Shown here piece after piece: positions 3,001-42,801 of a stretch of 64,000 bases of DNA (position 1 is its first letter; each line of letters begins with the position of its first letter). The notes beneath the pieces were generated by a model. The model was given only the letters and a program-made list of their open reading frames with translations. It did not search any database and had not been told where the DNA came from. The position numbers were made by a program, and so were the translations under genes. This DNA is from Obrimoposthia wandeli (lineage: Eukaryota): the NCBI GenBank assembly GCA_977020255.1, contig CDROCS010002890.1:1-64000 (forward strand), in the 5' to 3' direction.

Positions 3001-4600
3001 CGATAAAGCGATCGCTGACTTACTTTTAATTACTGAAAAGATGAGGCTTTGATTATGGATAATTTAACTCATGATGAATTAGCGAACAGCCTAGCTATCC
3101 ATTTAATTAATGATCAACGTATGGTTTGGGAGGACATCCCAGTAGGAAAGGTTCATTCTGTACGCCCTGACGTATTAACCATAGAAAAAAGCTATTCAAG
3201 CCCTAACCCTATATCTGAAATAAAGGTAAGTGTTTCGGATTTTAGATCGGATAACTAAAGAGCTAAATGGAAGGCTTATTTAGATTTTAGCTATGGCGTT
3301 ATATTTGCCGTGCCAAAAGGTTTAATTAAAAAGTCAGATGTACCTAATGGGTGCGGATTGATAACCTTTAACGGTCAATCATGGAATACAGTTAAAAAGA
3401 CCAACTTGCACCCGCAAAAATTAAATGACGAATTATTATTGAAACTATTTAGTAGCGAGCAAGAAAACGCAAAAACCAGTAATTAAAAATAGAGATTTTG
3501 ATCAACACGTTCACCATGAAACATTACGTCAAAAGTTTGGTAAAGAGTTTCGCAGTAAGATAGCTTTTCTTGATGATTATCGAAAAAGAATTAAAAGCAT
3601 TAAAAAGAGTTGGCTGCACTGTTTGATATAGATGTTGATGGATGGGCTTTTGAGAGAAATGTTGCCTACGCCATAAAGCAACTTAAAGTCATGGCTGACG
3701 AATCAGAACGTAAATTAAAGATAGCTAACGAGCTTGGGTCAATGAGAGATAGTATTAGCGCAGGCCTAGACAGGATAATCAATAAATATACTAACAATTA
3801 ATATTCATATAAACCCAAAAATTACACTTCACAAAATCCATGTTATAATTGCAGGCATCATTATCAATCGGTGCTTGCAATGCAATCAAAGAAACAACGA
3901 GCGCACAACAAGCTCAAACAAAAACAACAATTAACCGCTAACGCAAACACTCGCGGCGGTGGCAATAGATCCAGTAATTTCGGGTATAGGCTTACAGGCT
4001 CTTATCATAATGCAGATCAAAAAAGAGACGTATGGGAGGTGGCTGGGTACCCTTCTATTGTAAACTTCTCAGACCACTGGAACATGCAAGCCCGTTTTGG
4101 TATCGCTAAAGCAGGCATTCACCTATTACCTAATAAATGCTGGCAAACTCATCCAATTATTTCTGATGGCGAATACGATGCTGACCGCGATTTAACACCC
4201 TTTGAAAAAGACGTTGAAACACTCGTTAAAAAATTCGACCTATTTGCACGATTAAAAGGAATGGATTGGCGTAATCGCATTGGTCGTTATGCTGGCATTA
4301 TCCCGATCGTAAAAGAAACTGTTGCGGGCGGAAAACCAGATCCCACTAAACCATCCTCAACGATTGGCGGCATAGCTGCACTGATTAAAATTGTGCCTGT
4401 TCCTGAATCACAAATAGATGTGACTGATGTTAGCACCAATTCAGACATTCCGGGCTTGTTAGCGAAAATACGGCCAAAGATGCCTAGCTGTTACAACTTT
4501 AGAAATAACGTTGCAGGCGATCGAAACCCTATTGATAACAACGAAATTCGGGGTAATTAGACCCTAGCCAGTAACTATTTATATTTGCGGAAGGTGCTGA
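1..4600. repeat. Error-rich direct copy of 46792-~51400 (tailspike 3' end, endolysin, HNH, Dam, MmcB-like, portal 5' part)
   Basis: Base 1 AAAAATTGTTCAGGCTCTATATTTAACAACAACG matches 46792 onward; the same genes appear but are broken by small indels (e.g. tailspike, Dam and HNH are intact at 45-50 kb and fragmented here). Confidence 0.97.
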
Positions 4601-5348
4601 TGATGGGTCTATTTTTGGTATTCCTGCAAACGAGGCGGGTTATAATTCGTTAATGGATATGGAGAAAATTTGTGTCGCTGGCTCAGAAGGTTTATTTAAG
4701 AACTCTAAGCAAAGAACAGTGGTTAATGTTAAAGATAGTCAAGTGGCTAACGTATTAACTAATGACCCTAAGAAAAAAGAAATATTTGATCAATCAGCAG
4801 ATGATTTTGCCAGCGGCTTTGATTCGATGCTTACGACTTACGGTATGGACGTTAATTCGCTACAATCAACGCTATCAGACCCGACTGCACCCTTTACCAA
4901 CTCATTAAACTGTTACGCGGCATCGCTTCAAATTCCTGCGTCTGAATTGATTGGTGTACAAATGAATAAGCAGGCAAGTGTCGGCAATGAAACAGCATTA
5001 ATTAACACCGCAGAAAGTCGCCGAGAAAATACACTTTCACCGATGATCATTAGATTTCTAGAATACTTCGTTGGACGTGGAATAATTAAAGCGCCCACTA
5101 ATGAAATAGTAGTTACCTGGGCGAAATTATCTGAACCAACTACAGGTGAAAAATTAGATAACAGTAAAAAAATGGCTGATGTTAATAAATTGGCATTTGA
5201 TACTGGCATGGGCGAACCTACATTCACCGAAGAAGAAGTGCGCAAAGGCTTGGTATTCGAAGAAAAGCCCGAAGAAGAATTAGAGGGTTTCGGCGAAGAT
5301 GATGAAGATGACGAAGACCTAGTAAAAGATAATGAACAACCTAAGTAA
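3880..5348 (+). CDS. Phage portal protein (DUF1073-like), frameshifted near 4450-4570 in this copy
   Basis: ORFs 3871-4560 and 4653-5348 form one ~480-aa protein; the second copy (50898-51740) reads through the break (DISSENYGMPSYYNF...QLDPSRVFIFAEG); it precedes the head morphogenesis gene and has an acidic C-terminus. Confidence 0.85.
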
Positions 5349-5511: not shown

Positions 5512-6550
5512 TGTTAAAGTTGGAAGCCCAGTAATTCCACGGAAAGCAGAAGATCCAGCTCATCAATTTCCGAACCTACGCAATGCTAACGCGCAATTAA
5601 CGAAACGCTATAAAAACATTAAGCGTGGTATTCGAACGTTGATCGCAAGCTTTGAACCTGTACTAATTACAAACAGCGATATTGGTAACTACAAAAATAG
5701 CAACGTAGGCGTTACCTGTATTGATTCTGACAAAGAAGTAACTACAAATGCAGCGGTGTATAAATACCAACTTGATTCACAGCGCTATCAAAGTATTAAC
5801 TTATTCCTGCAGCAATTGCTGTATGGTGAATTACTAGATAACCAGCAAGGAGCATTTACTAATCGTTGGTGGCTCAACGCTAATTTAACGAGTGCTTATA
5901 CTGATGGTACGGCAGATGCATTGCAATCATCTAAAAACATCGCTGTGCCTGCTGTGGTTGGCGTAGAAATATCGCAACAACTTCGAAGCACGCAGTTAGA
6001 ACAAATAGTATTTAGCCCAGGCTTTCAAAATCGTGTCGGGCTGGTCCATGCTCGCGTATTTGAAGGAATGAAAGGATTAAGTGATTCTAGCAAATCAGAC
6101 TTGTCTGCAACGTTAGCGCGATCAATGGCAAAAGGTGCAGGCATTCGTGAAGTTACCAAGGATGTGATGGCCCGTGTTGATGTGTCTCATAATAGAGCTA
6201 AACGAATTGCACGTACTGAGATATTAAATGCTTATCGTGGTGCCTCAGCGACCGAGACTGACGAGATAAATGAAAACGTATACGATGATAGTGAATGGCA
6301 TATGGTGTCGCTGTGGTGGTCAGCACTCAGCCCTACCACTAGGAAAACCCATTCCGCTAGGCACTCGAACACATACACCACCCAAGAAGTTAGGCAATTT
6401 TACAGCGTAAATGGAAACGCGATCTTTTGCTTATGCTCGCAGTCTCCCGTATTAGCAAATAAACGCACTGGTGAAATACTTCAGAAACCACTACAAGATA
6501 GGATGAAGAAACAACGAGAAGCTTGGGAGAAAGCTCACGGTGTAGTATAA
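5489..6550 (+). CDS. Head morphogenesis protein (Mu gpF / SPP1 gp7-like minor capsid)
   Basis: RAKRIARTEILNAY and W.SALSPTTRKTHSARH...N.I.CLCS motifs; position after the portal. Confidence 0.88.
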   Translation: MKILSIINVKVGSPVIPRKAEDPAHQFPNLRNANAQLTKRYKNIKRGIRTLIASFEPVLITNSDIGNYKNSNVGVTCIDSDKEVTTNAAVYKYQLDSQRYQSINLFLQQLLYGELLDNQQGAFTNRWWLNANLTSAYTDGTADALQSSKNIAVPAVVGVEISQQLRSTQLEQIVFSPGFQNRVGLVHARVFEGMKGLSDSSKSDLSATLARSMAKGAGIREVTKDVMARVDVSHNRAKRIARTEILNAYRGASATETDEINENVYDDSEWHMVSLWWSALSPTTRKTHSARHSNTYTTQEVRQFYSVNGNAIFCLCSQSPVLANKRTGEILQKPLQDRMKKQREAWEKAHGVV

Positions 6551-6551
6551 T
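6523..6551 (+). promoter_or_regulatory. Putative sigma70 promoter of RNA-HNH cassette 1
   Basis: TTGGGA (6523) -17 nt- TATAAT (6546), overlapping the 3' end of the head gene. Confidence 0.55.
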
Positions 6552-6556
6552 ATCAA

Positions 6557-6605
6557 TGCGCTGAGGGATTAATTACCCCGTTTCGACTCGTTACCGAACA
6601 GCGCA
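6557..6605 (+). ncRNA. Three-helix structured RNA element E1 upstream of HNH gene
   Basis: P1 TGCGCTG/CAGCGCA; P2 GGG-ATTAATTA-CCC; P3 TTCG-[ACTCGTTAC]-CGAA. The loop is complementary to GTAACGA (6617-6623) and partly to TAACGGAGT, which contains the SD (6629-6637). Confidence 0.75.
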
Positions 6606-6644
6606 AAACTTCCACAGTAACGACGCCTTAACGGAGTGAGTTCT

Positions 6645-7355
6645 ATGATCGTAAATACATGCAAGTCATGCTTATTAACAAAAGATATTTCTGAATTTTA
6701 CAAGTCAACAAGAACAACCTCTGGGTATAGAAATACCTGCAAGCAATGCGCTGCCGAAAACGCAGCAAAAAGATACAGCAAAACAAAGGTTTTCGTAGGT
6801 CACAATCAATCTAACTTGCCACTGCCAGATTTAAACTGGCTTCATGATAATTTTAATTACCACTCTGACGGCTATTTTGTAAGAAAGATCTCAAGAGGAA
6901 GATCTATTGCCGGAACAAAAACCCAAGGTAAGCTTGAAGATAATGGGTATTACAGAGTGAACATTAATTATAGCGCATTCCTTTTGCATATATTAATTTG
7001 GAAGTGGCATTATGGTACTGAGCCAAAATTCATTGATCACAAAGATAAAGACAGGCTGAATTGCAGGATTAACAACTTACGCGAAGCAAGTAAAAACGAA
7101 AATGCTAGAAATCAATTATTACCATCAAATAACACTAGCGGGTTTTACTGTGTAAGGTGGCATGAATATAATGGAAGAGTTGGCAAGTGGGTAGTGTCAA
7201 TTTCCCATGGTGGCAATATTACATCTTCATATTTTTCATGTATAACAACCGCGGTTAACTGGTATTGCATACAAGCGGAGTTGCTACACGGAAAATTCGC
7301 AAAAGATAAGATTGCACACAACAAAAAAGCTTTAGCTGAATATTTATCTAAGTAA
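6645..7355 (+). CDS. HNH homing endonuclease with N-terminal CxxC..CxxC finger
   Basis: CKSC...CKQC at the N-terminus; IDHKDKDRLNCRINNLREAS HNH_3 motif; C-terminal AP2-like region. ATG 6645 follows GGAG (the track starts at GTG 6636). Confidence 0.9.
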   Translation: MIVNTCKSCLLTKDISEFYKSTRTTSGYRNTCKQCAAENAAKRYSKTKVFVGHNQSNLPLPDLNWLHDNFNYHSDGYFVRKISRGRSIAGTKTQGKLEDNGYYRVNINYSAFLLHILIWKWHYGTEPKFIDHKDKDRLNCRINNLREASKNENARNQLLPSNNTSGFYCVRWHEYNGRVGKWVVSISHGGNITSSYFSCITTAVNWYCIQAELLHGKFAKDKIAHNKKALAEYLSK

Positions 7356-15675: not shown

Positions 15676-16046
15676 GATAATTCACCCTTTAATATGTTTG
15701 GGTTTTCATAAATATTACCAACGACAACTAGCTCTTGATGCTTGATAACTCGGCTACTTAATGTGCCGCCACAAAGATAACAACCACTATCAGCGCAGTA
15801 TTCAACCGTGAACGGGTTCCATATAATTGGATCTAATTGATGTAAAACATCACCTTCATAGATATCCTTTCCGTTGATATCTTGCAGGCCGATGAATTGC
15901 ATTAGTACGTCGCCATAATCACCGCGAATTAATTTACAAAGCTCATTTCGCTGGTATTCATCTTTGCATAATTTATCGTTATAAAAGTTAACCATTGTTT
16001 TGTGTGCTTCATGCCATGCTCTAAATTTAATTTCTTTCACAATCAT
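15672..16046 (-). CDS. YopX family protein
   Basis: EIKFRAW...LMQFIGLQDINGKDIYEGD...VVGNIYENP. Confidence 0.9.
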   Translation of the reverse strand: MIVKEIKFRAWHEAHKTMVNFYNDKLCKDEYQRNELCKLIRGDYGDVLMQFIGLQDINGKDIYEGDVLHQLDPIIWNPFTVEYCADSGCYLCGGTLSSRVIKHQELVVVGNIYENPNILKGELS

Positions 16047-17749
16047 TCCCCTAAAATATCTTCAACGCTAACAGTCGCGCCAAATTTTTGATTAAATACT
16101 TCGTATATGTGCAATTTCTCGCACTGTATGAAGTCCTCTGTTTCATTGCAGATTACTTGAAAGCTAATGCCTAACCGTTTTAAATCACTCGTAATAAAGT
16201 TGAAATTATGAGGGTCAAACACGCATACAGTGCAAACACCATGCTCTTTATGTAATCGTAGTGCCTGCCAGTAATCAGTGGTTAACACCGCTTGCCCATT
16301 CAACGCACCAAAAATATAACAGGTGCCGTACATAAATTTCTTATTGAAAAAACGTATGTCGAACCCTTCGCCCTGCAATAATGCCAAGCTCAATAATTCA
16401 CCGTTTAAATTGATGAGCGGTAATACTTGAGAGCTGCCAGCAAAATAATGACCGTTAATTTCTGTGCAACCATTTAATACATCGTTAACCGTTTCTTCTT
16501 TCACCTGGTTAAGCGGTAATCTAATTTTGACCTGCTTGACATAGGTACTCGGCATCGAATCATCAAACGCATTGCTATCGATTATTTTTACTGCATCAAT
16601 GAAGTCGATATTCAAATATTCCTGAATGAATCCGACCACATCACCATGCGCGCCACAACCGAAACAATTCCCCGTTAAGATATGATCATCTAAAGTAAAT
16701 GATTCTGTACCTTTAACCTCACAACAGTAAACGTCATCTGTCACGCCATTATCTTCAACGGAAACAACTGACCATCTTCTTCGTGAAAATTTCTTACTTG
16801 ATTCCTGTATTCTTTTTAGCTGATAACTTCTTACAAATAAAAATTCAGGCATTGTTGAAGAGTCAAAATGAATTCTATGAATATCACTCATGATATTATT
16901 AATACCCATCCTGTTCTGAGTTGTTATTCCATAAGTAAAAATGCCTATCTTGTTACATATGTCTCTAACTTCATTCAACGTTTCTTTTGATGAACAATTT
17001 AAAATAACCGTACCATCTTTAGCCACACAACCATCAGTTGCTATATACCCAGCAATAAATCCTGCCAAGTAATTATTATCCATGCTTAACGCTGGCATAG
17101 TCTTTATATGTGCGCCAATCCCGTAAACTCGTTTAAATCCTTCCTTTTGCGTTATAGACTTGGCGCGAGGAAAGAATACAGACAACGCCTGTTTTTCTCC
17201 GTGTAAGTTTACATGGCTGTATTTTCCTTTGTATACAGTCCCGTCGCCAAAACCTATGCCGTGACAAATCCCACCCTTATCTGCGCTTGAGAATAACTTA
17301 GGCAAACTAGCTGATTCTAACCTACTGCCAATATATAAATTTTCAGTAGTTATTTTTGACTTTCTACCTCTGACAATCCAGTCGTGATCAGGTGTTGCTA
17401 GTATTGTTTTAGTGACTCTGTTCCTACTAAGATTCACGGTTAAAAGTTTTTGCTTGCCAAGAGAAAAGAAAGGAGCATCAACCCACTGCTTATTGTTTGT
17501 TAATATCTTATGACTACCTCCTGCCATATCTGATATTTTCATTACGCCATCGATGGTTATTACTTTAGTGTCGCCATGAAAGCAATGATAAAACTGTTTA
17601 GACTCCGACACAGTAAACGAGGGTGAGTTTTCAGCATGAAACGGGCAGCAAGCACTATATCCGCTACCCTGCTTTTTTAACTCGATATAGCCGCCAATTA
17701 CGTCAACTATATCAACTGAGTTTTTTATGCGATCTATGTCGATTGCCAT
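16043..17749 (-). CDS. CHC2 zinc-finger primase-like protein interrupted by an intein (predicted spliced product 262 aa)
   Basis: CPFHAENSPSF...KQFYH | intein | CFGCGAHGDVV reconstitutes the DnaG-type zinc-binding domain; the C-terminal part resembles a degenerate phage TOPRIM. Confidence 0.9.
   Translation of the reverse strand: MAIDIDRIKNSVDIVDVIGGYIELKKQGSGYSACCPFHAENSPSFTVSESKQFYHCFHGDTKVITIDGVMKISDMAGGSHKILTNNKQWVDAPFFSLGKQKLLTVNLSRNRVTKTILATPDHDWIVRGRKSKITTENLYIGSRLESASLPKLFSSADKGGICHGIGFGDGTVYKGKYSHVNLHGEKQALSVFFPRAKSITQKEGFKRVYGIGAHIKTMPALSMDNNYLAGFIAGYIATDGCVAKDGTVILNCSSKETLNEVRDICNKIGIFTYGITTQNRMGINNIMSDIHRIHFDSSTMPEFLFVRSYQLKRIQESSKKFSRRRWSVVSVEDNGVTDDVYCCEVKGTESFTLDDHILTGNCFGCGAHGDVVGFIQEYLNIDFIDAVKIIDSNAFDDSMPSTYVKQVKIRLPLNQVKEETVNDVLNGCTEINGHYFAGSSQVLPLINLNGELLSLALLQGEGFDIRFFNKKFMYGTCYIFGALNGQAVLTTDYWQALRLHKEHGVCTVCVFDPHNFNFITSDLKRLGISFQVICNETEDFIQCEKLHIYEVFNQKFGATVSVEDILGE
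16667..17584 (-). mobile_element. Intein (306 aa) with LAGLIDADG homing endonuclease
   Basis: Block A CFHGDTKV, block B TPDHDW, LAGLIDADG blocks HGIGFGDG and AGFIAGYIATDG, block F DVYCCEV, block G ILTGN followed by +1 Cys. Confidence 0.93.
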
Positions 17750-22342: not shown

Positions 22343-22633
22343 ATGGTAAACGAAAAATTAAACAAATGGTTTGGACTGTCTTACGCTAGCTTTTTAACTT
22401 TGCCTCGGGTTCTTATGCAGGAAATGCCACAAGAGTAGCAAGAAGAAATGTCAAAATTGCTAAATGATTATGAGCAATCTTTCCCTAACCAGCCAGATAT
22501 GGAGTTAATAGTTACATTCAAGCAGAATAATAAATTCATCAAGGCACCTGAATATCTTGTTAATTATCGTAGACCTGACTTTGAAAAGATAAACGAATTA
22601 AAAGGGAAATATAATGGAAACAAAAGAGGGTAA
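22343..22633 (+). pseudogene. Small phage protein interrupted by an in-frame TAG (22436-22438)
   Basis: AGGAG SD, ATG 22343; MVNEKLNKWFGLSYASFLTLPRVLMQEMPQE*QEEMSKLLNDYEQ continues in frame. Confidence 0.55.
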
Positions 22634-22778: not shown

Positions 22779-22862
22779 ACAGCACTTGCATTGCGCTTAG
22801 TTGTGGGTTATATTTGTTTTGTTCTCACTAAAGTATGTATATCAGATAAGGAGTAAGTAGTT

Positions 22863-23042
22863 TTGATTAAAGTTATTTATTCCTTATTTGGGTTTGTTTG
22901 TTTTATATTTAAAATGTTTAAAGAAATCCTTGTTAGCGATTGCAACCGCGAAGAGGTACGTAAATCAGGAGCAGGACCACCAGCGAGTGGCACTCCATAC
23001 TGTCAACTTAAACCGAGATTCTTAAGGCTTCTTATGGATTAG
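22863..23042 (+). CDS. Putative small membrane-anchored protein (59 aa, TTG start)
   Basis: AAGGAG SD 9 nt upstream; hydrophobic N-terminus IKVIYSLFGFVCFIF; upstream promoter TTGCAT-17-TATATT (22786-22814) and downstream terminator. Confidence 0.4.
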   Translation: MIKVIYSLFGFVCFIFKMFKEILVSDCNREEVRKSGAGPPASGTPYCQLKPRFLRLLMD

Positions 23043-23078: not shown

Positions 23079-23170
23079 GGTGCATATATTTGTCATCTTT
23101 CGATTTACTTCGGTTAGTTGGCGTAGGATTAAATACTGAGAATATTTGATTGCTACAACAGGAAACTATT

Positions 23171-23220
23171 TATGGCTAGGCTTAGCGGCTGAAAGTGAGC
23201 ATCAGTAACTCATTGCCATG
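23171..23220 (+). ncRNA. Three-helix structured RNA element E2 upstream of HNH gene
   Basis: P1 ATGGC/GCCAT; P2 GGCT-TAGC-GGCT; P3 AGTGAG-[CATCAGTAA]-CTCATT. The loop is complementary to TTACTGA (23229-23235). Confidence 0.75.
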
Positions 23221-23259
23221 AATCTTATTTACTGACTATTCTTAACTGGAGAATAAATC

Positions 23260-23835
23260 ATGATCACACAAGATCAGCTGAAAACCCTACTAACATATAA
23301 CCCTAATACAGGGCTGTTCACTTGGAATTACCGAGGAAAAGATTGGTTTAAGCCATCAAGAACAGGTAATCAATATAAAACATGGAATAATAAATTTAAC
23401 GGTAAGATAGCAGGCGTAACCATAAGCTCGAAAGGGAAAAACTACTCAATAATTCAACTTAGGGTGTCCAGTAAAGGCGCGCCAATTAGGCTTAGAGCGC
23501 ACAGGCTAGCTTGGCTTTACGTGTATGGTGAATGGCCTAAAGAAGAGATAGATCACATCGATGGTAGCGGATTGAATAACGCAATATTAAATTTGCGCGA
23601 TGTAAGCAGAACTGAAAATATGAGAAACATGAGAAAGCCATCAAGCAACACATCAGGGCATACTGGTGTCCATAAAGAAAAATCGACAGGGAAGTTTGAG
23701 GCACACATAAGTAAAAATAATAAAAAGGTAAGTTTAGGTAGGTTTAGTGATATAGAGGACGCAATAAAAGCAAGATCACGCGCAGAGGTGACTATGGGAT
23801 ACCACAAGAACCACGGGACAGACAGGCCGTTATAA
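23260..23835 (+). CDS. HNH homing endonuclease (HNH_3 + AP2-like domain)
   Basis: L.Y.P.TG.F.W, AHRLAWLYVYGEWP..EIDHIDG..LNNAILNLR, NTSGHTGV. Confidence 0.93.
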   Translation: MITQDQLKTLLTYNPNTGLFTWNYRGKDWFKPSRTGNQYKTWNNKFNGKIAGVTISSKGKNYSIIQLRVSSKGAPIRLRAHRLAWLYVYGEWPKEEIDHIDGSGLNNAILNLRDVSRTENMRNMRKPSSNTSGHTGVHKEKSTGKFEAHISKNNKKVSLGRFSDIEDAIKARSRAEVTMGYHKNHGTDRPL

Positions 23836-34874: not shown

Positions 34875-35480
34875 TTATTCTATTCTGTATGCCAGCAAAG
34901 CTGATTTTAACGGATCACTCTGCTTTAACGCTATTTCCTTTATTATTGCATACTTAGCTTTTTTATATGCGTTAGACGCTGCAGATGAAGAGTTAAAATA
35001 TCCAATATGCCTCCTATTTCCGTTAATATTGATGCTCGACATAAATCTATTATGAAATTTACTCCATGAAACCCCTTGTGGGTATGCGCCTCGCTTAGCT
35101 TTGTGATCAGTTAATAGTTTATTGATTTGATGGCTGACAAAGATACAAGTTTCAGGTGAGTAAATTTTGTTACCTTGAACAAGTATGTCCTTGTCTATTT
35201 CTTTTTCTTTCCAATCTTGCGCGATCATCCAAGTTTTAAAATTACTAAATGTTAACCAATCAGTGCAAACTGTACAGTCTTTATATGTAGGGAATTTTGA
35301 TTTAAATGCAGGAGAGTAGCATCTAGATAGAACATGGTGCCACCGACTATAGTAAGGGCATTTAAATTCTTTATTGTTCACTGTTATTTTGATCGTATAG
35401 TCAGCATCATTAATGCCTATGCCAAAAATGGACTTTCTTTGACCTAGAGACTTGTTGCTTGCGGGGATTTCTTGAAACAT
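34875..35480 (-). CDS. HNH-type homing endonuclease (antisense insertion); paralog of 42193-42801
   Basis: GIGIND, RW..VLSRCY, CTVC.DWLTFSNFK.W, DKD.L.QGNK.YSPETC.FVS, P.GV.W. Confidence 0.88.
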   Translation of the reverse strand: MFQEIPASNKSLGQRKSIFGIGINDADYTIKITVNNKEFKCPYYSRWHHVLSRCYSPAFKSKFPTYKDCTVCTDWLTFSNFKTWMIAQDWKEKEIDKDILVQGNKIYSPETCIFVSHQINKLLTDHKAKRGAYPQGVSWSKFHNRFMSSININGNRRHIGYFNSSSAASNAYKKAKYAIIKEIALKQSDPLKSALLAYRIE

Positions 35481-35522
35481 AATAATTACCTTAGTCTTGG
35501 CATGTCACTTTGGGAGTTGTTC

Positions 35523-35570
35523 GCGATGTCTGGTGACAAAATCAGAGCGGGGTAATTAGTCCCTCATCGC
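35523..35570 (-). ncRNA. Three-helix structured RNA element E3 upstream of HNH gene
   Basis: Minus strand: P1 GCGATG/CATCGC; P2 GGG-ACTAATTA-CCC; P3 TCTG-[ATTTTGTCAC]-CAGA. The loop is complementary to GTGACA (35503-35508). Promoter TTGCAT-17-TATAAT lies just upstream. Confidence 0.75.
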
Positions 35571-35687
35571 TTAATTATTATAACTAACAGTCAAACATAA
35601 TGCAAAGCATAGCGCATACTTTCAACATTAATTAACTATATGGTACAATCAACATGTTAATTAATAAAATAATCAAGGAGCCACACA

Positions 35688-42090: not shown

Positions 42091-42099
42091 TGATATAAT
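42071..42099 (+). promoter_or_regulatory. Promoter of RNA-HNH cassette 4
   Basis: TTGTAG-17-TATAAT with an extended TG motif. Confidence 0.65.
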
Positions 42100-42102
42100 T
42101 TG

Positions 42103-42156
42103 TTTGCATCTAGGCTTAGCGGCTGAATATCTGAACTTAGAACAGACCGATGCAAA
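42103..42156 (+). ncRNA. Three-helix structured RNA element E4 upstream of HNH gene
   Basis: P1 TTTGCATC/GATGCAAA; P2 GGCT-TAGC-GGCT; P3 TCTG-[AACTTAGAA]-CAGA. The loop is complementary to TTCTAAG (42164-42170). Confidence 0.78.
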
Positions 42157-42192
42157 ACTTCAATTCTAAGCAATTACACTAAGGTAATTAAT

Positions 42193-42801
42193 ATGCAATT
42201 CATAGAAAAGCCAGTTAACAAAAGCGCACTATCAAGCAGAAGATTAATATTAGGTGTAGGAACAAATGATGCTGCCTACCAAGTAAATCCAAAAATAGAC
42301 GGTGAAAACTCTCTATGTAGATATTATAGCCGATGGCATGGCATGCTAAAAAGGTGCTACCATAAGGGCTACCAAGAAAAACACCCATCATATATTGGCT
42401 GCGCTGTCTGTACTGATTGGTTAACTTTCAGCAACTTCAAGACTTGGATGATCAATCAGGATTGGAAGGATAAGCACCTAGATAAAGATTTATTAATTCA
42501 AGGGAATAAAGTCTATTCTCCTGAAACGTGTTTGTTTGTAAGTCAGCAAATAAACACCCTGTTAAACAACTGCAGAGCAAAAAGAGGTGATTACCCGCAG
42601 GGTGTTTGCTGGAATAAAGCCGCTAAAAAGTTCACGGCAGAAATAAGTTTCGCAGGAAAAAGAAGGAGCGTATCTTACTTTGAAACCGTTAAGTTGGCGT
42701 ACGCTCACTACAAGAAAGAAAAATACATACTCATAAGGCAAGTAGCGTTAGAGCAGTGCGAGCCACTTAGGGCTGCACTATTATCGTATAAAATACAATA
42801 A
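42193..42801 (+). CDS. HNH-type homing endonuclease; paralog of 34875-35480
   Basis: GVGTND, RWHGMLKRCY, CAVCTDWLTFSNFKTW, LDKDLL.QGNKVYSPETC. Confidence 0.88.
   Translation: MQFIEKPVNKSALSSRRLILGVGTNDAAYQVNPKIDGENSLCRYYSRWHGMLKRCYHKGYQEKHPSYIGCAVCTDWLTFSNFKTWMINQDWKDKHLDKDLLIQGNKVYSPETCLFVSQQINTLLNNCRAKRGDYPQGVCWNKAAKKFTAEISFAGKRRSVSYFETVKLAYAHYKKEKYILIRQVALEQCEPLRAALLSYKIQ

Follow-up and report, generated by a model that had tools for sequence, protein, structure and literature searches.

We found that each of the four HNH endonuclease genes of a siphophage is preceded by a predicted RNA leader with a variable loop, and that two downstream sites, T1 and T2, covary with this loop independently of each other. 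In its core the leader is a divergent version of int-alpA, an orphan Rfam motif; the leader of the second cassette (E2) is not a formal member. Judged from its sequence, the leader likely keeps down translation of the nuclease gene that follows it.

A siphophage with four HNH cassettes

The DNA analyzed here (the window, 64,000 nt) is a contig within a 1.35-Gb assembly, and its gene content is that of a bacteriophage (terminase, portal, head, tail, primase and exonuclease genes). Motifs recur with a period of ~46.8 kb, so that the phage genome is read about 1.4 times in window positions 1-64000, with an indel-rich second pass; the window therefore represents a siphophage of ~46.8 kb, distantly resembling Vibrio siphophages (~67% DNA identity in the major capsid gene). 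The contig is probably a contaminant long read from a phage of an associated bacterium. All four HNH endonuclease genes are free-standing, with starts at 6645 (+), 23260 (+), 35480 (-) and 42193 (+):

6645..7355, + strand: HNH endonuclease behind leader E1 (Pfam and PHROG scans)
23260..23835, + strand: HNH endonuclease behind leader E2, 191 aa (Pfam HNH_3, E 7e-14; PHROG 99, E 1e-57)
34875..35480, - strand: HNH endonuclease behind leader E3 (PHROG 953), antisense to tail genes
42193..42801, + strand: HNH endonuclease behind leader E4 (PHROG 953)

The E2 nuclease gene has the terminase large subunit region on one side and a head gene of unknown family on the other. Further upstream of this cassette we noted an A/U-rich hairpin of 20 pairs with a T-rich tail after it (22843-22890, +) and a small ORF (22343-22633, +) that a stop at 22436 breaks in two; its second part matches PHROG 3527. 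A primase-like gene (16043-17749, -) carries a LAGLIDADG domain in mid-gene, probably an intein.

Each leader spans ~85 nt and consists of a three-way junction (P1, P2, P3), a site complementary to the P3 loop (T1) and a weak hairpin (P4), which in the predicted fold carries a second complement of the loop (T2) together with the Shine-Dalgarno (SD) sequence. The elements of E2 are:

23169..23176, + strand: P1, 5' strand (two-sided changes in 7 of 7 P1 pairs among 43 relatives)
23179..23190, + strand: hairpin P2, with loop UAGC/UUAGCG, a non-palindromic variant of a loop that is mostly palindromic in the family
23194..23214, + strand: hairpin P3, with the variable 9-nt loop L3 at 23200-23208 (4 of 4 P3 pairs covary)
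23215..23222, + strand: P1, 3' strand (from the fold)
23229..23235, + strand: T1, 7-nt complement of L3 (-6.7 kcal/mol), a putative decoy
23237..23255, + strand: hairpin P4, arms 23237-23242 and 23250-23255; its loop, 23243-23249, is T2 (-4.8 kcal/mol)
23248-23251, + strand: SD sequence GGAG, with the ATG at 23260

The other three leaders are laid out as follows:

6546..6644, + strand: leader E1, with -10 box 6546-6551, junction 6558-6604 and loop 6586-6594
6617-6623 and 6629-6637, + strand: T1 and T2/SD of E1, respectively, by sequence complementarity
35481..35582, - strand: leader E3, with -10 box 35582-35577, loop 35542-35533, T1 from 35508 and a weak T2
42094..42192, + strand: leader E4, with -10 box 42094-42099, loop 42134-42142, T1 42164-42170 and a P4 with T2

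P2 is identical in E4 and E2, and the P2 loops of E1 and E3 each hold a 6-nt palindrome. A TATAAT box lies 17 nt before the junction in E1, E3 and E4; in E2 no such -10 box was found at the family position. T2 is short in E2, P4 is marginal in E1 (-1.1 kcal/mol), and the second site of E3 is weak with its own loop (-3.9 kcal/mol, against -5.0 kcal/mol with the E4 loop). This E3 site (35501-35490, -) may be decayed or miscalled; the close relative L147 matches the E3-type loop cleanly.

Support for the leader structure is comparative covariation and not folding energy. The folding energy of E2 was unremarkable (z -0.67), and unconstrained minimum-energy folding of E1, E3 and E4 did not give the full junction. 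Across 43 aligned elements, two-sided changes affected every pair of P1 (7/7) and P3 (4/4), with a score reached by 0 of 500 shuffles; P2 had been fixed by the search pattern in this set, which is therefore uninformative on P2 covariation, and P2 keeps G-U pairs. A P2-like motif of the E1/E3 type at 4550-4575 (-) had neither P1 nor P3 and was rejected as a fifth copy. This motif, found at 4566, falls where one portal-gene ORF (3871-4560) gives way to the next (4653-5348), and it is partly absent from the second pass.

Two downstream sites covary with the P3 loop

All four P3 loops and their downstream targets were present in the sequence as the original prediction had described them. The longest Watson-Crick match of each loop was to its own leader (7, 7, 6 and 7 nt for E1-E4), compared with 3-5 nt for the other three, and chance coincidence is indeed unlikely: in random 45-nt stretches of the same phage genome such matches occurred at frequencies of 0.011, 0.011, 0.057 and 0.005, respectively (product 3e-8). 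The target had been placed 14-21 nt downstream of P1, a distance that applies from the start of the P1 3' strand (14-20 nt) and not from its end (6-14 nt). A second copy overlapping the SD in E1, E2 and E4 was likewise present, but SD overlap is not all that it does: in E2 and E4 it forms the loop of P4, with the SD on the 3' side of that hairpin.

Searches with conserved-arm patterns returned at least 121 and 26 viral loci and at least 121 genome loci. Among the matches listed were 244 distinct candidates, of which 145, with 99 distinct loops, passed a filter on P1 and P3 that was blind to the targets; the 99 candidates dropped included chance matches in coding DNA along with some real elements with bulged stems. 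Related elements keep the complementarity, and the covariation of loop and target is real and family-wide: 94 of the 99 distinct loops matched their own downstream 45 nt over at least 5 nt and 67 over at least 6 nt, versus 17% and 4.9% of swapped pairs, and the observed mean match was reached in 0 of 100000 permutations.

Both sites are maintained. For the 88 of 99 loops with a callable start codon, matches of at least 5 nt fell in the T1 zone in 58 cases (swapped 4.4%; 0/20000 permutations) and in the T2 zone in 71 (swapped 9.8%; 0/20000 permutations), with both zones matched in 57 elements. In these 57 elements T1 started 22.4 +/- 2.2 nt past the loop, the fixed spacing that a cis pseudoknot would need, and T2 lay within a predicted hairpin loop in 43 and overlapped the SD in 43. 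T2 repeats T1 in direct orientation at a distance of about 14 nt. The two overlap in specificity, and one loop is unable to pair with both simultaneously, yet neither site prevails in strength: of the 57 elements, 32 had the stronger match at T1 and 22 at T2, with 3 ties. The predicted P4 averaged -4.9 kcal/mol; with its own arm the value was -4.7 kcal/mol, versus -2.5 kcal/mol with swapped arms (0/20000), and only 1 of 57 elements had its own arm as the top-ranked partner. G is nearly missing from the linker between P1 and T1.

The leader holds a fixed position relative to promoter and SD across the family. A -10-like box preceded 54 of 88 elements, and in 49 of 88 it lay 16-20 nt before the junction, a position from which the RNA would start at P1.

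A second subfamily, found by a motif search, yielded 103 cores, 95 of them parsed, with 55 loops; 54 of these had a match, 46 in the T1 zone and 36 in the T2 zone. With all sets pooled (447 cores, 323 passing, 192 distinct loops), 174 loops had a site, 160 had two (5+4 nt) and 115 had two of at least 5 nt, compared with means of 34.6, 18.7 and 5.2 over 60 swaps.

Four U's followed P1 in 21 of the 192 elements, and we therefore rejected a terminator-made short RNA as a general feature. Since such U-tracts are rare and no terminator was found after P1 of E2, a short form of the RNA would need processing. Among public sequencing runs for the relative L391 (4 of 24 covered), three gave contigs only and the one raw-read run gave no read. 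In one locus (L141, 901-917, -) T1 is followed by a strong terminator-like hairpin and a U-run in place of P4 and the gene start, possibly a stand-alone small RNA.

We also rejected the idea that the four distinct loops reflect selection for orthogonality, or cassette specificity. Swapped pairs rarely reach 6 nt anyway (4.9%, as above), and the P1 and P3 stems turn over fast too, so that loop diversity alone is no proof of such selection. It is further undercut by L244 and L245, two elements with an identical loop 1.9 kb apart on one Planctomycetes contig.

The leader core is a divergent int-alpA

In a 701-nt scan, E2 scored 29.6 bits (E 4.7e-4) against the int-alpA model RF02996, below the gathering cut-off of 35.8. 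The alignment spans the full 71-position model (P1-UA-P2-GAAA-P3-P1) with no non-standard pair marked. No Rfam family matched the whole window at gathering level, none matched positions 1-46800 at E<=2 in E-value mode, and the int-alpA model misses E1, E3 and E4. The cut-off was passed by 7 of the 14 closest loci that share the E2 P2, versus 0 of 6 with the E1/E3 P2, and by all 20 tested members of the second subfamily, which shares the layout of loop, T1 and T2. As E2 itself falls below the cut-off, yet half of its 14 closest relatives and the tested members of the second subfamily pass, we call the core a divergent int-alpA and not a formal member. A close homologue is annotated as int-alpA in a GenBank phage record. 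Within the window's own assembly, RF02996 found no match among the 69 of 19006 candidates scored.

The likeness lies in the shared three-way junction, the UAG and GAAA joints and the arm lengths. The Rfam model differs in that it stops inside T1, and its printed structure line is without T2, P4 or the loop pairing. Rfam types int-alpA as 'Gene; sRNA', and the motif reportedly stems from the survey of Weinberg et al. 2017. The word 'alpA' has 0 occurrences in the main text of that survey (PMC5737381), and in the accessible portions of PMC12370729 and PMC13612085 int-alpA is named only as a table entry or in a gene order. We found no description of the loop/T1/P4/T2 layout or of a palindromic loop in the mainly non-subscription literature; the original account of int-alpA may include the loop-T1 pairing. 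An orphan, widespread motif thus gains an anatomy beyond its Rfam model, with a putative decoy, an SD hairpin bearing a target in its loop and a palindromic loop that may serve in docking, as well as a candidate mechanism open to a simple reporter assay. The original prediction had not included P4, the palindrome in the P2 loop or the assignment to int-alpA.

The P2 loop is commonly palindromic

P2 loops were compared using search patterns that left P2 unconstrained, which gave 240 matches, 48 of them kept. The first such pattern yielded 27 distinct P2 sequences, or 26 after one stemless sequence was dropped; the second (E1/E3-type) was mostly noise, with 1 real element in 11 kept rows. Taking as the loop P2 minus its three outer pairs, a definition that may include the closing pair, we found a palindrome of at least 4 nt in 19 of the 26 distinct sequences, in the form of 11 different words (7.5 expected from shuffles of their own letters; 0/20000). 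With each word counted once, 11 of 17 loops were palindromic versus 5.4 expected (63/20000). P3 loops, on the other hand, shun palindromes (5/88, expected 18.6). The palindrome of E1 and E3 is an A/U-only 6-mer and weak (about -0.7 kcal/mol), and the loop of E2 and E4 is non-palindromic, keeping only a 2-bp GC core. Taken across the family's sequences, a palindromic P2 loop points to RNA-RNA dimerization.

The leader is a portable module

We scanned the products of 66 of 109 called downstream ORFs, those omitted being truncated, redundant or evidently false. Nuclease-type domains were found in 28 of the 66 proteins (HNH 20, GIY-YIG 5, NUMOD3 only 2, endonuclease VII 1) and antirepressor- or replication-type domains in 9; the remaining assignments were counted as Bro-N 2, Rha 3, DUF1376 4, Dam 1, DUF723/DUF4379 2 and none 26.

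A single loop type preceded 7 unrelated N-termini across 10 loci, and in public contigs a near-identical promoter-plus-leader block stood before a different gene. Model R1, built from the 43 elements with the E2 P2, finds E2 and E4 in the window and misses E1 and E3; among 80 close relatives of the E2 HNH protein it detected a leader on 1, which is a lower bound. Since the leader heads unrelated genes and was detected on so few relatives of the E2 nuclease, we regard it as a portable module and not as part of the nuclease family. Cultured phages that carry the element include Thalassomonas phage BA3, Shewanella phage ZP9 and Pseudomonas phage PS-1. A BLASTN search with the L163 leader against E. 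coli genomes gave no match.

In one lineage P1 starts 2-3 nt after a tRNA: at L361 (506-661), and also at L352, L367 and L419, the int-alpA element lies 2-3 nt past a tRNA-Ser that ends a tRNA array. This suggests that tRNA processing sets the 5' end of the L361-type element. The int-alpA core itself resembles a tRNA without its T-arm (a stem, UA, a G-initiated 4-bp arm and a 5-bp arm with a loop of 7-9 nt).

A model of translational control and its alternatives

The original prediction held that alternative pairing opens or occludes the ribosome-binding site. Its sequence premises stand: two sites are kept and the second covers the ribosome site, which makes translational control by alternative pairing the natural reading. 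We infer the direction of control, off as opposed to on, only from T2 covering the SD.

The best model, to which we give an even chance, is that T1 acts as a decoy for the leader's own loop until a second leader docks, fills T2 and closes the ribosome site, following a rule of 'two loops fill two sites'. A newly made transcript on its own would pair its loop in cis with T1, the earlier of the two sites to be transcribed; T2 would then remain unpaired, P4 (about -5 kcal/mol) would breathe and translation of the gene would proceed. Once leader RNA builds up, another leader, either a further message or a stable 5' fragment surviving decay, would dock, probably through a P2-P2 kiss, and would occupy with its loop the site still free, so that P4 would be held shut over the SD. 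The outcome would be a short burst of nuclease followed by self-silencing, and incoming cassettes with an identical loop would also be silenced. Against this model we counted the non-palindromic P2 of E2 and E4, the weak palindrome of E1 and E3, the missing -10 box and short T2 of E2, the rare U-tracts, the fast turnover of the stems, the twin identical loops and the low rank of the own P4 arm, which was the best partner in 1 of 57 elements.

An alternative is a purely cis two-state switch, in which a single molecule would have its loop on T1 (on) at one time and kissing T2 (off) at another, the choice being governed by folding kinetics, temperature, magnesium or a host protein reading the conserved junction. 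Both sites are reachable with balanced energies, most members have no terminator, and E2 and E4 have no clean palindrome; nevertheless, P2 self-complementarity maintained through 11 different words is left unexplained, and the unrelated downstream genes make no common gene product or metabolite evident as a trigger, and we consider such a switch somewhat improbable. Unlikely, in our estimate, is activation of the kind known for IsrK, with the message held shut in cis, either by a loop that sits on T1 and stacks on P4 or by one that sits on T2, until a copy in trans unlocks it. IsrK does activate its own read-through message in trans (PMC4825925, as far as its available text goes), and T1 abuts P4, where pairing could block a ribosome standby site. 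At either site, however, a trans loop would find only 5-8 nt to pair with; the SD is covered by T2 in 43 of 57 elements, neither site invades the P4 stem as the ~30-nt pairing of IsrK does, and IsrK has a terminator whereas terminators are rare here.

Least probable is that the leader is no switch at all, being instead a constitutive dampener or 5' stabilizer with T2 arising from local duplication, or a DNA-level signal in cassette movement. Its modularity and its exchange between genes would suit this reading, as would T1 and T2 being nearby direct repeats; yet in 160 of 192 cases both copies change along with a loop that is hypervariable, P2 keeps its G-U pairs, and the position relative to promoter and SD is fixed.

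Returning to the model of decoy and docking, we tentatively extend it, as a possibility on the doubtful side, to int-alpA-type leaders in general, which would be self-counting switches in which P2 dimerization moves the programmable P3 loop from its own decoy to the partner's ribosome site. Were this true, mobile elements in several bacterial phyla would have nuclease, antirepressor and replication genes able to gauge the concentration of their own transcripts with no protein involved, and the leaders would silence incoming cassettes of the same loop. Should the trans or dimer model hold, selfish nucleases and dose-sensitive phage genes would bring their own shut-off into new genomes, and the family would offer a natural library of compact, programmable translational switches.

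Comparison with known leader RNAs

The original prediction drew a parallel to the two target sites of C4 RNA, which we did not find borne out. C4-family models (C4, c4-2, c4-a1b1) were absent from the 7 Rfam matches at E<=10 around E2 and from 40 related loci. C4 RNA has two loops with separate targets, whereas here one variable loop faces two copies of one target and the other loop is palindromic. The leaders do resemble C4 of phages P1 and P7 (RF01695) in that a loop pairs with the ribosome site of the downstream gene (T2-SD overlap in 43/57). Leader-encoded RNAs that act in trans on their own message include C4, CI and IsrK (available text of PMC12197685 and PMC4825925); C4 and CI likewise use antisense pairing by a loop near the ribosome-binding site of a mobile-element gene, with specificity drawn from loop and target sequences (PMC12197685, same portion), and the CI RNA of satellite P4 is cut from the leader that it controls (PMC4825925, same portion). 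CI has targets both upstream (seqA) and downstream (seqC) of the RNA; both sites found here lie downstream, and the position of the predicted -10 box would leave no room upstream. In contrast to C4 and CI, no small icd/kil-type ORF lies between RNA and gene. IsrK of prophage Gifsy-1 has a terminator, pairs over ~30 nt and activates, whereas these leaders pair over 5-8 nt at two sites, rarely have a terminator and would repress.

The homing endonucleases of T-even phages (I-TevI, segB, mobE) also place a hairpin over the ribosome-binding site of a phage endonuclease gene (accessible text of PMC2988022). Their hairpins are highly stable, and a late promoter within the hairpin serves to bypass them, whereas P4 is weak (mean -4.9 kcal/mol), the promoter lies upstream of the junction and the hairpin is targeted by a variable loop. 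The palindromic P2 loop recalls the self-complementary loops in the 5' leaders of HIV-1 (DIS) and MoMuLV (GACG), an unrelated system and sequence for a dimerization that is here predicted only; two base pairs suffice to hold a retroviral kissing-loop dimer (PMC7357161, in its available part), and one family member has a GACG loop.

Other HNH genes carry leaders of a different design. Those at L151, L154, L158, L159, L169, L216 and L218 combine a promoter, a GC-rich hairpin and the motif CTCT(G/A)ACCA before the SD, and at L194, also upstream of an HNH gene, the junction is of another kind, with a loop that seems to match the SD region of that leader.
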